Source: Planctomycetia bacterium (GTDB lineage: Bacteria; Planctomycetota; Planctomycetia; Pirellulales; JACPPG01). From it: a stretch of DNA of 64,000 nucleotides. This document shows, piece after piece, positions 14,546 through 19,922 of this stretch. The position numbers were made by a program, and so were the translations under genes. Under the pieces are notes generated by a model. It saw only the letters and a program-made list of their open reading frames with translations. It had not been told where the DNA came from and searched no databases. How positions within the stretch are numbered: position 1 is the stretch's first letter; each line of letters starts with the position of its first letter. Location of the stretch: positions 2,681 to 66,680 of the forward strand of contig JACPPG010000035.1 of the NCBI GenBank assembly GCA_016191115.1. Reading direction: 5' to 3'.

Positions 14546-14599
14546 CGTCGTCTTTTCAGTCAAGGTCCTTCCTCGCAGGTTGGCACGCCAAGAAACCCT

Positions 14600-14723
14600 C
14601 AGGAGAACTGCGAAGTCCTTGGAGAGGGGGTCAGGCACATTTTTCGGCCGAAGGTCCTTCGGAAGAATTGAAAACCGCGTGCGCCGAAAAATGAGCCACA
14701 CCCCGGACTTTGCAGTTCTCCTG
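14600..14723. mobile_element. MITE family B, copy 1 (124 bp)
   Basis: TIR CAGGAGAACTGC / GCAGTTCTCCTG; 10-bp direct repeat aagaaaccct at 14590-14599 and 14724-14733; homologous to 17881-18002. Confidence 0.9.
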
Positions 14724-14815
14724 AAGAAACCCTTGAGAGCGTCGTACCCCACCCGAATTGTAACTACAATCGATGTGCCTTTGGAACGGCTCTACGCCAT
14801 TCGAGGTGATCTGGT

Positions 14816-16265: not shown

Positions 16266-18038
16266 TCAGCGCCGCCTGCCGCCTCGCGGCACCATCCACG
16301 CCAGGCTAGCCGCTAGCGCGAGGATCCCTGCCGGCGGCTCGGGCACCGGGATTGCGGCGCCGCTGCCCGCGCCACCTCCGGCCGTCCAGTTGGCGGCGAT
16401 TGTCTGGACGTCAGAAATATCCACCACACCGTCGCCGTTGGCGTCGGCCACCGCGTCGGTCGAGAGCCAGTGGGCCGCGACCATCTGCACGTCGGAGATA
16501 TCCACGTCGGCGTCCAGGTTCAAATCGCCCGGCAGGGCCGCGACAGTCAGATCCACTCTCAGCGATGTAGTGACGCCGCCGAAGGTGTCGTCCACGCGGA
16601 CCGCCACGCGATAGGTGCTCGTGACGCCGATCCCCAGGTTGTGCAGTTGCGTCCAGGAAACGAGCGGTTGCACGCCGGTGGCGTCGCCGAAGACGCCGTC
16701 GCCGTTGATGTCCCAGGAATACTGCAACAAGGGCTGGTCGCCCACGTTTGGGTCCGTCGATGCCGATCCATTGAGCACTACCGCGTTGTGCGCCGTAATC
16801 GCGTAAGCCGCCCCGGCATTGGCAATCGGCGCCTGCTGCGGGTCCAAGCCGGTGAGCGTGACCATTTGCTTCGACGTATACGGCGTCACGCCCGTCTCGC
16901 CATATCCGGTGCGGATGGCGTCGATGAACCGATCGGCCAATAGCGCCGCGCCGATCGGCGCCGGATGAACGCCGTCGGGAAGCGTCAGGTCGTTCCAGCC
17001 CGTCAGGTTGACCGACTTGTCGGGGTTGATGGCGCTGGTGGGGGCGGCGTGGGCCTGGATCGGAATGCCGTGGACGATGGTGTTGCCGGCCGCCGCCTGT
17101 TCCCACCAATCGAACAAGCTCACCACCGGCATCGGCGTCGGAAAGAGCGTCTGGGCGAGCGCGTCGACCCGGGCGTTCCAGGCGATGACGTTGTCGCGAA
17201 TGTTGGCCCGCTGGGTCGGCGTGAACGAGGCGCCGGCCGAGGCCAAGGCCGCGCCCACGTCGAACAAGTCGCCGAGCACCATCTTCACCGGCGCGGCGCC
17301 GTTGTTGGTGGCGGTCAAAAGGCCCGTTCGCAAGTTGTCGCGCATGGCGTCCAGCCGGGCGGCGTTGCCGGGATCGGTCGAAGGCGCGTCGCGGAAGTAG
17401 GTGAAAACATTGATGCCGGCCAGAAGATCGTTCCCGCCCAGGATGAGCGCGCCGTATTGCACGGTGCCGGCCTGGGCCATCGTGCGGAAGTTCGTCGGCG
17501 CGCCGGGCGGCACGGGCGGGTTCTGCGTGTAGCTGCTGGAGAAGAACGTGTTGAAGGCGCCCAAGCCGTTGGCCTCGGTCGAGGCCCCGCCGCGGGCAAA
17601 GTTCCAACTGAAGCTGCTGCGATCGACGCCGGCGCGGCGGACCTCGGCGGTGCCGCTGACCAGCGTGAAGGCGGTGTACGTGCCGAAATCGAGCTTGCCG
17701 GTTCCCTCGGCAAACTCGACCCAGTTGCGGATGCCGGTCGTGGAATAGCCGAACGTCCCGCCGGTGGGATCGAGATTGCTCCACTCGTCTGTGATGCTGT
17801 CGCCCATCGCGCCGACTTTGACCTGCGCGTGGGCAAGACCGACCGCCACGACGACGAGCACCAGCGCGGCCGTACACCGGCAGGACAACTGCCAAGTCCT
17901 GGGAGAGGGGGTCAGGCACATTTTTCGGGGAACGTCTTGGGAAGAATTGAAAACCGTTTGCGCCGAAAAATGAGCCAGACCCCGGAGTTTGCAGTTCTCC
18001 TGCGTACACCGGGGAGCGGAAACCAGTGAGGCTCTCAC
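16266..18038 (-). CDS. SGNH/GDSL hydrolase with PKD-like module, dockerin-like repeats and PEP-CTERM anchor; contains an in-frame MITE
   Basis: MGDSIT, NFARGGA, GGND and DGVHP blocks; PIANAG..YSWDINGDG; GDLNLDADVDISD; VPEP + TM + RRR. GTG start overlaps the upstream TGA. Confidence 0.88.
   Translation of the reverse strand: MRASLVSAPRCTQENCKLRGLAHFSAQTVFNSSQDVPRKMCLTPSPRTWQLSCRCTAALVLVVVAVGLAHAQVKVGAMGDSITDEWSNLDPTGGTFGYSTTGIRNWVEFAEGTGKLDFGTYTAFTLVSGTAEVRRAGVDRSSFSWNFARGGASTEANGLGAFNTFFSSSYTQNPPVPPGAPTNFRTMAQAGTVQYGALILGGNDLLAGINVFTYFRDAPSTDPGNAARLDAMRDNLRTGLLTATNNGAAPVKMVLGDLFDVGAALASAGASFTPTQRANIRDNVIAWNARVDALAQTLFPTPMPVVSLFDWWEQAAAGNTIVHGIPIQAHAAPTSAINPDKSVNLTGWNDLTLPDGVHPAPIGAALLADRFIDAIRTGYGETGVTPYTSKQMVTLTGLDPQQAPIANAGAAYAITAHNAVVLNGSASTDPNVGDQPLLQYSWDINGDGVFGDATGVQPLVSWTQLHNLGIGVTSTYRVAVRVDDTFGGVTTSLRVDLTVAALPGDLNLDADVDISDVQMVAAHWLSTDAVADANGDGVVDISDVQTIAANWTAGGGAGSGAAIPVPEPPAGILALAASLAWMVPRGGRRR
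17881..18002. mobile_element. MITE family B, copy 2 (122 bp), inside a CDS
   Basis: TIR caggacaactgc / gcagttctcctg; 10-bp direct repeat cgtacaccgg at 17871-17880 and 18003-18012. Confidence 0.92.
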
Positions 18039-18703
18039 AGGGTGGCGGGCTCCTCGGCGTCGAAATGCACTTTCAGGTGGGGTAGCGCATGCCGGAGCGC
18101 GTCGGCGCCCGCCTGCGTGACGCCCGTGCCATTGACGATCAGGTCGCGAAGGCCGGCCAGCTTTTCCAGGTGCGCAAGCCCTGCGTCGGTCACAGCGGTG
18201 TGCGCGAGCGCGAGCTTTTCGAGCTGCGCTAGGCCGGCGAGATGGGCCAGTCCGGCGTCGGTGATGCGGTTGCGCCCGATGTCCAGGACGCGCAGCTCGC
18301 CGAGGCCCGCCAGGGCTGCCAGTCCCTCATCCTCGACTTGTGTGGTGTTGAGGTTCAGTTCCTTAAGATGGGAGAGTTTTGCGACGGCCTCCATACCGGC
18401 GTCTGTGGCGCGAGAGTTGTTAAGTTGCAACGCCGCGAGGCGGGGCAGCGCGGCCAGCGAGGCGACGCCTGTTCCGGTTACGCGGGTAAAGCCCAACTCC
18501 AACCGCTCGAGATTGGCAAGCCCCTTCAAGGCGGCGAGATCGGCGTCGGTAACCCGCGTCCGCTCCAGGTGTACGACCGTGATTTCGTAGCCGCCGTACA
18601 GATCGCGGATCTTGGCCAGAGCGGGGTCGTCGCTTTTCGAACGATAGCAACTGACGGCCAGGCCCAGCGCCAGAATGAGCACGACTAGCGGGATGTTTCT
18701 CAT
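18035..18703 (-). CDS. Leucine-rich repeat lipoprotein
   Basis: 24-aa LRRs (TDAGLAHLAGLAQLEKLAL); lipobox LAVSC. Confidence 0.88.
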   Translation of the reverse strand: MRNIPLVVLILALGLAVSCYRSKSDDPALAKIRDLYGGYEITVVHLERTRVTDADLAALKGLANLERLELGFTRVTGTGVASLAALPRLAALQLNNSRATDAGMEAVAKLSHLKELNLNTTQVEDEGLAALAGLGELRVLDIGRNRITDAGLAHLAGLAQLEKLALAHTAVTDAGLAHLEKLAGLRDLIVNGTGVTQAGADALRHALPHLKVHFDAEEPATL

Positions 18704-18770
18704 CGTTTTTTTTCCGGTGGGCGGCAAACCCTGCTTCGTTCCTCGGCGCGAAATCCCACGCGAACTGGGC

Positions 18771-19922
18771 TCAGAACGGGTTGGCAGTGGGCAGGCCATC
18801 CTTGCGATTGCCGAGGGACTTAAAGACGTCTTTGTCAATCTGATAGCTGATCGACGGAACTGAGCCATCGCACATGGCGACGTTCAGGCCGCTGCCATGC
18901 GCACTCCCAAACCAACGGTCCGTATGCTCGACGTTCGTCGGATTGGGGTCAACGACGACGTAATCCTGCTTCGGCACGGCGTCCGTCGCGCGGTATGCAT
19001 CCGATTGAAAACCGGAGTACGTGTTCTGGTCTTCACCGACCGCCGCGCCCAATTCGTAAGAATTGCTGCGGAGGAATTTTTCGCCGAGCATTATGGTGTT
19101 CGTCGTGCCATCGGGGATGTCCGCGAAGCGAATCTCGCTGCGTACGAAGCAGATCCCCGTAGAGTTCAGCACCGGGCCGGGCCACTTTTGCCCCCAGTTC
19201 ATGCCGTCTCCCTGCCCAAGGGTGATTGGACCATTGACGCCAAAAAGGTTGTTGTCGAGGTCGCCCGCGTTGGCCGCATAGTCGATCTTGGCGGATTGCG
19301 GTGGCCAGCACAGCTTGGTTAGTGGATCGTCTCCGTCCGCGCATTTGGAGATGAATTCGTTGTTGTACACCGAGTAGTGGGGATAAAGTCGCGCCTCGCG
19401 CCGCGTGGGACAATGAAACATCGGGATCGGTGTCATCACAAGTTCAATGATCGCTCTTTTCTTGTCGTCGCCGCTCGCACTCTGTCCACGCTGGAATAGC
19501 GCCGACTGCTCGACGAAGGGCAAGACGTTGAAGGCCCAGCTCCCCGGCTGTCCCTTGCCAAGCCCGCGCGTCGGGTCGGCGGTCCACGCGATTCCCCAGC
19601 CGCCGGACGGAAAGAAGCCGAACGTGCTCTCGGCGTTTAGGAACCCCAGGGCCATCTGTTTCATGTTGTTCTTGCACTGGCTCCGCCGCGCCGCCTCGCG
19701 CGCCGCCTGCACCGCCGGCAACAAGAGGCCGATCAGAATGCCGATAATGGCGATCACCACCAACAGCTCCACCAGCGTGAAACCGCGGCGGCCGGCAGGA
19801 AGCCGCCGCAGGGCTATCCTGCCGGCGCCGCGACAACGGGAGCGTCGGAAGAAGGGGGGTAGGGGTTGGGCATTGGGGGTTAGGATCGTAATCGCACTGG
19901 CAAGCTGCACGATATCAGGCAT
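18771..19922 (-). CDS. DUF1559 prepilin-like protein (H-X9-DG C-terminus)
   Basis: GFTLVELLVVIAIIGILIGLLLPAVQAAREAARRSQC, DGTTNTIMLGEK and SAHGSGLNVAMCDGSV; start approximate. Confidence 0.93.
   Translation of the reverse strand: MPDIVQLASAITILTPNAQPLPPFFRRSRCRGAGRIALRRLPAGRRGFTLVELLVVIAIIGILIGLLLPAVQAAREAARRSQCKNNMKQMALGFLNAESTFGFFPSGGWGIAWTADPTRGLGKGQPGSWAFNVLPFVEQSALFQRGQSASGDDKKRAIIELVMTPIPMFHCPTRREARLYPHYSVYNNEFISKCADGDDPLTKLCWPPQSAKIDYAANAGDLDNNLFGVNGPITLGQGDGMNWGQKWPGPVLNSTGICFVRSEIRFADIPDGTTNTIMLGEKFLRSNSYELGAAVGEDQNTYSGFQSDAYRATDAVPKQDYVVVDPNPTNVEHTDRWFGSAHGSGLNVAMCDGSVPSISYQIDKDVFKSLGNRKDGLPTANPF

Follow-up and report, generated by a model that had tools for sequence, protein, structure and literature searches.

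The gene for a predicted secreted GDSL lipase in an uncultured groundwater planctomycete carries a 122-bp MITE copy near its 5' end, and the open reading frame runs through the element without a stop codon. We consider it rather probable that the MITE transposed into the 5' end of this gene and was tolerated there, in frame, within the n-region of the signal peptide. The locus lies in a stretch of 64,000 nucleotides (the window, to which all bare positions refer) from a metagenome-assembled draft genome of 6.03 Mb in 93 contigs, with 65% G+C. The element, its flanks and its neighboring copy are located as follows.

17881 to 18002, no strand assigned: MITE copy of 122 bp, which the minus strand reads as codons 13-53 of the open reading frame 16266..18038
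17871 to 17880, no strand assigned: left copy of the 10-bp target-site duplication, cgtacaccgg
18003 to 18012, no strand assigned: right copy of the 10-bp target-site duplication
17881 to 17899, plus strand: left arm of the terminal inverted repeat, about 19 bp, from an alignment of 103 copies; the right arm is its partner in the fold
17984 to 18002, plus strand: right arm of the terminal inverted repeat, from the alignment of 103 copies; it pairs in the fold
14600 to 14723, no strand assigned: intergenic sister copy of 124 bp, with the duplications AAGAAACCCT at 14590-14599 and 14724-14733, 134 bp in total

The ends of the focal element are inverted repeats, CAGGACAACTGC... and ...GCAGTTCTCCTG, and the direct repeat cgtacaccgg at 17871-17880 recurs on the plus strand at 18003-18012 with all ten positions identical. 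A 39-base piece of the element had two matches in the window where none was expected by chance. As RNA, the element was predicted to form one long hairpin (-78.9 kcal/mol for 200 nt, z -3.4, equaled by 2 of 200 shuffles). Together with one 10-bp repeat it adds 132 bp, or 44 codons, and is stop-free in the lipase frame. The earlier note on this DNA had proposed a MITE with a 10-bp duplication, an in-frame insert of 44 codons lacking a stop, and an intergenic sister copy of 124 bp. The first claim was borne out by the inverted-repeat ends, the cgtacaccgg pair and 151 genomic loci, the second by the open reading frame 16266..18038, which reads through the element, and the third by the copy at 14600-14723, which comes to 134 bp with its duplication. 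The focal element is thus confirmed as a genuine insertion of a mobile repeat.

The length of the focal copy might have been explained by a 2-bp deletion that restored the reading frame after insertion. A copy on another contig (C55:107698-107805) has the identical 122-type centre, and the next closest copy, on C23, has two additional bases there. Because the 122-bp form is common to the focal and C55 copies, it is not a post-insertion repair, and this candidate was rejected.

We regard it as very improbable that the insertion is an assembly artefact, in which the repeat was misplaced or its length mis-assembled in this metagenome-assembled genome. The draft is divided into 93 contigs, and independent contigs break in the repeat, with none spanning 17917-17956 uniquely. 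Contigs of one sequencing run that carry the locus end inside the repeat, and none of them skips the element. Against an artefact, two contigs of this run (17300-17916 and 17957-18700) enter the element from either side without differences and at a matching depth of 35-39, although the run is probably the source sample and not independent. The perfect 10-bp duplication is the trace of a real insertion, and the identical centre in the C55 sibling copy makes the 122-bp length independent of which copy supplied the reads.

A blastn search of the 6.0-Mb draft with the element returned 200 alignments that resolved into 151 loci, made up of 103 full-length copies and 48 partial ones. The family consensus is 124 bp with terminal inverted repeats of about 19 bp and a 10-bp target duplication, and the consensus ends, CAGGAGAACTGCAAAGTCC, are kept across the 103 aligned copies. 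By a first estimate, 52 copies measure 124 bp, 18 measure 125 bp, 10 measure 123 bp and 6 measure 122 bp; a few copies reach about 132 bp by way of an 8-bp internal duplication. The flanking 10-bp repeat has a different sequence at each site, and among the 103 full copies its two arms agree at 10/10 positions in 59, 9/10 in 24, 8/10 in 9, 7/10 in 5 and 6/10 in 6. With terminal inverted repeats, a target duplication of fixed length whose sequence varies between sites, and many dispersed copies too small for a transposase, the family is a MITE family.

We did not find a parent insertion sequence with the family ends: among 249 terminal-repeat matches in this draft assembly, in which a parent could be unassembled, 5 fell outside MITE loci and none bounded a transposase-sized unit. 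Insertion sequences of the ISAs1 family make 10-bp target duplications and have CAGG ends. The MITE family here has a 10-bp duplication and ends that start with CAGG. An N-terminal fragment of an ISAs1-type transposase (PF13808) is present at C55:1-147 (L039), where it runs off the contig end; the terminus about 100 nt upstream of the fragment's start reads CAGGGCG..., not the family's CAGGAGAACTGC.

Other short elements in the genome touch on this family. A 157-bp element (C31:26318-26474) has the family terminal repeats, an unrelated interior and its own flanking duplication, and it may be a second MITE mobilised by the same transposase. The CAGGGCC.../...GGCCCTG end of the genome's other MITE lies within 30 nt of 34 of the 103 full copies, where less than 1% was expected, and is often directly beside the 10-bp duplication (for example at C32:60513 and C83:145359). 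The two MITE families seem to insert at each other's ends.

Among 40 related genomes, one genome of the same genus (72% complete) has a single copy with 82% identity. Another genome of the same order from a different family (G034) gave 28 matches that cover just the 80 central bases and leave out the terminal repeats, the longer ones at 73-78% identity; this may be a related repeat with different ends. Six more distant matches, mostly to part of the element, came from a further genome (G030). On this distribution, the abundance of the family looks like an expansion within this lineage.

The gene that received the focal copy and the parts of it that bear on export are listed here.

16266 to 18038, minus strand: GDSL-lipase open reading frame of 590 aa with a GTG start, intact through the element
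18035 to 18868, minus strand: upstream leucine-rich-repeat (LRR) gene, assigned by Pfam, with coding signal on both sides of the element
18036 to 18038, minus strand: predicted ancestral GTG start, in a GTGA overlap with the upstream TGA at 18037-18035, with GAGGAG 12-17 nt upstream
17826 to 17870, minus strand: hydrophobic core and AHA cleavage motif, codons 57-71, not altered by the insertion

The 590-aa protein matches the Pfam domain Lipase_GDSL at aa 76-371, a weak PKD-like domain at 402-499 and a dockerin-like domain at 503-547, and it ends in a PEP-CTERM-like tail. The GDS and DGVHP motifs are present, and a codon-usage score found strong coding signal along the whole 590-codon frame. 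The LRR gene at 18035..18868 and the lipase gene are probably in one operon. The overlap of the lipase GTG (18038-18036) with the upstream TGA (18037-18035) was found as the earlier note had described it. Sec-type traits (a charged n-region, a hydrophobic core and an AxA motif) were read by eye and are located as in homologs.

Excision of the element and one repeat by script gave a 27-residue N-terminus that contains two arginines and a hydrophobic core and has AHA preceding Q, reproducing the signal peptide that the earlier note had predicted for the uninterrupted gene. The GTG at 18038 is the sole ATG, GTG or TTG upstream of the element in the lipase frame, and also the only one before the hydrophobic core in the empty-site version. 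In 10 homologs with called N-termini, out of 12 proteins fetched, a signal peptide of 20-35 aa directly precedes a conserved (Q)[IV]KVGAMGDS-type motif (KVGAMGDS or KVGAIGDS), which would place the insertion within the ancestral n-region. In this reconstruction the element separates codon 12 from codon 13 of the ancestral signal peptide. The earlier placement of the MITE inside signal-peptide codons is thereby supported by the sole upstream GTG, the scripted excision and the homolog N-termini.

A lipase ortholog or empty-site allele was not found in the 40 related genomes, which gave only C-terminal domain matches beside a paralog in the same genome. A search of 5.8 billion proteins likewise retrieved no ortholog, returning the gene call of this locus and then a next protein with 57% identity. 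The ancestral state is therefore reconstructed and not observed. The paralog (C72:58613-60094) is 53% identical to the lipase. A further MITE copy (C72:60521-60644) lies some 400 nt upstream of it, and the paralog's gene call (P0004) begins at the MGDS motif, so that its signal peptide was probably missed.

To locate the family relative to genes, we used a codon-usage score trained on 1,424 long open reading frames and a simple home-made gene caller applied to empty-site versions of the 103 full copies, with inspection of borderline cases. No full copy among the 103 lies deep within a gene, and the family avoids genes and is almost entirely intergenic. Coding signal on both flanks and on one strand was seen at 2 of the 151 loci, namely the focal copy and C64:23817, the latter directly before an ATG. 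At this second locus (C64:23817-23940) the element sits between co-directional genes and replaces the ribosome-binding region of the downstream gene. Three copies fall on the stop codon of a long gene, within 2-4 nt (C3:24965, C72:41601 and C47:122640), and another (C53:29491-29626) lies 141 nt before a called stop, with a duplication matching at 8/10.

Twenty of the 103 copies fell in the interval from the start that gives the longest frame to the start with the best score. Inspection covered nine of them, the focal copy and the 8 whose best start was no more than 110 nt from the junction, and not the other 11. These 8 were rejected as intragenic, the junction lying upstream of the more plausible start, and were counted as intergenic. 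A plausible start precedes only three of the 103 copies (the focal copy, C76:72908-73032 and C16:24262-24386), all of which sit within the first 9-12 codons. The two others are as follows.

C76:72908-73032 (L019 2409-2533): second in-frame copy, 125 bp, which with its perfect 10-bp duplication adds 135 bp, or 45 codons
C16:24262-24386 (L020 1763-1887): third in-frame copy, 135 bp with its perfect duplication, 45 codons

The C76 copy is found 8 codons after the ATG and before the hydrophobic core of a DUF3179 protein. Homologs of this protein in three other genomes have plain signal peptides before a conserved PDAF.TLVNP.CSHC motif, and the C76 copy is, as judged from these homologs, a second signal-peptide case. 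In the C16 case the host gene codes for an APH-type kinase, and 9 codons separate its ATG from the element. An ortholog in the same genus (67% identity) lacks the insert and begins 9 residues ahead of an LDIEQPG common to both proteins, which fits a predicted start 9 codons upstream of the C16 element.

The length of the focal insert is by itself unremarkable, about a third of copies adding a multiple of three. Where the duplication matched at 8/10 or better (92 copies), 30 inserts had a length divisible by three, 15 left a remainder of 1 and 47 a remainder of 2. Frames through the copies are often open (262 of 534 overall, and 76 of 162 among in-frame copies), and by our estimate a random insertion would be in frame and also free of stops with a probability of about 0.14, which falls to 0.003 for three successive insertions. 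Each of the three copies behind a start keeps the frame and has no stop, as against 27 of the 89 others that are in frame (one-sided Fisher p=0.032), a comparison of three cases that were chosen after inspection and called with a home-made gene caller. The genome-wide check for frame bias that the earlier note had called for was thus favorable, on very small numbers. The result is suggestive of a selection filter that retains, in the first dozen codons, only in-frame, stop-free copies. Because the frame and orientation of reading differ among the three elements, no particular peptide is kept.

Signal-peptide n-regions tolerate changes in length and are removed on export. In the explanation that we favor, a 122-bp member of a species-specific MITE family of about 150 copies would have transposed into the 5' end of the secreted GDSL-lipase gene. 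Its insertion would have parted codons 12 and 13, which belong to the signal-peptide n-region, and duplicated 10 bp of the target. Given these properties of n-regions, and an addition of 132 bases that is divisible by three and free of stops, the reading frame and the enzyme would survive, as would the hydrophobic core and the cleavage site of the signal peptide. We infer that the lipase gene still works.

Three codons could serve as the present start.

18036 to 18038, minus strand: candidate start GTG 18038, with the upstream-stop overlap kept and GAGGAG 12-17 nt upstream, a spacing used in this genome
17886 to 17888, minus strand: candidate start TTG, codon 51, in the terminal repeat, preceded by AGGA at a distance of 9-12 nt; initiation here would yield a signal peptide of 21 residues
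17919 to 17921, minus strand: candidate start ATG, codon 40, in the element, with no Shine-Dalgarno-like word upstream; it would give a 32-residue signal peptide

The insertion may have cut off the old start, with translation now beginning within the element at the TTG (17888) or the ATG (17921) and the frame shared with the GTG being coincidental. We think this possible but lean against it. The gene call at this locus (P0001, 540 aa) starts at TTG 17888 and has an ordinary signal peptide of 21 aa, and the AGGA 9-12 nt before the TTG falls within the peak of Shine-Dalgarno-like words in this genome, which lies at -14 to -9 nt in 279 well-defined starts. Initiation at either the TTG or the ATG would retain the AHA site and the entire hydrophobic core together with a positively charged residue, and an in-frame length has a prior of about one in three. 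Yet in the RNA fold the TTG, the ATG and the AGGA all lie in the stem of the very stable hairpin, whereas the GTG is outside the stem. TTG is a rare start codon, used by 9 of the 279 well-defined genes compared with 228 for ATG and 42 for GTG. The old GTG, its GAGGAG and the overlap with the upstream stop are all intact, and starts within the element do not predict that the three start-proximal copies would all keep the upstream frame.

The frame result and the start-codon and hairpin evidence, taken together, make read-through from the GTG a little more probable than initiation within the element. On balance we lean marginally toward ribosomes that still initiate at the old GTG, in coupling with the upstream gene, and read through the hairpin, which would produce a 71-residue presequence. 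A promoter scan detected no promoter-like site between the LRR and lipase genes. No RNA, expression or proteomic data were found for the locus, and the one listed run that includes it is a groundwater metagenome, probably the source.

It is improbable, in our view, that the insertion instead disabled export or expression, leaving the lipase as a young, undecayed pseudogene whose function the paralog may cover. Read from the GTG, the n-region would have 56 residues, which is unusually long; the paralog at C72:58613-60094 has 53% identity; and the absence of mismatches in the duplication may point to a recent insertion. The intact 590-codon frame, with strong coding signal throughout and both the GDS and DGVHP motifs, does not suit a pseudogene, and the two other N-terminal copies being in frame points to a selection filter and not to neutral decay.

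Insertions of this kind have been described in other bacteria. According to a 2024 review, in-frame fusions of intragenic MITEs to host open reading frames are not unusual, with RPEs, ERIC, BOX, QMITE1 and Anabaena MITEs as instances (PMC10969869). The same review describes RPEs as elements of about 150 bp that are specific to Rickettsia and lie in nearly half of cases inside open reading frames (Ogata et al. 2000, via PMC10969869). The focal element is like an RPE in being a short palindromic mobile repeat in frame within a gene, where it adds a peptide segment to a protein that is apparently intact. It is unlike them in that 3 of 103 full copies are behind a start and none is deep in a gene, whereas nearly half of RPEs are described as inside open reading frames. 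No particular peptide is kept here. The parallel with RPEs drawn in the earlier note holds as an analogy of outcome; it does not extend to location, the family here being almost entirely intergenic.

The family also resembles ERIC, BOX, QMITE1/2 and the Anabaena MITEs in being mostly intergenic, with open frames and an occasional in-frame fusion, usually at a gene end. In one paper, Coxiella QMITE1/2 are described as making in-frame insertions in the middle of a gene or at its 3' end (PMC5896051). The QMITE examples in these papers are C-terminal or mid-ORF, as opposed to the N-terminal signal peptide here (PMC5896051, PMC10969869). The term 'signal peptide' is absent from both PMC10969869 and PMC5896051, and a literature search joining signal peptide and MITE found nothing relevant among the papers listed, which dealt with mites or other matters.

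We read the focal locus as an in-frame MITE insertion that a signal peptide has tolerated, and in-frame intragenic MITEs are already in print (RPE, ERIC, QMITE). Because such fusions are already in print, no general view is changed. The point added is a small one, that in this genome three of the three copies behind a start keep the frame. The locus is also a small annotation warning, as gene callers shift the start codon into the repeat. This one genome shows where selection lets a very active MITE stay, namely between genes, at stop codons, and in frame in the first codons, twice in an export signal. More tentatively, and at a level that we would still call unlikely, the first dozen codons, and above all signal-peptide n-regions, may be the one intragenic place where MITEs can persist in this and other planctomycetes. 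The 44-45 extra codons would then be translated from the old start to give extended presequences, and the hairpin at an operon junction could tune coupling or export. If true, mobile repeats would regularly reshape export signals in this way.
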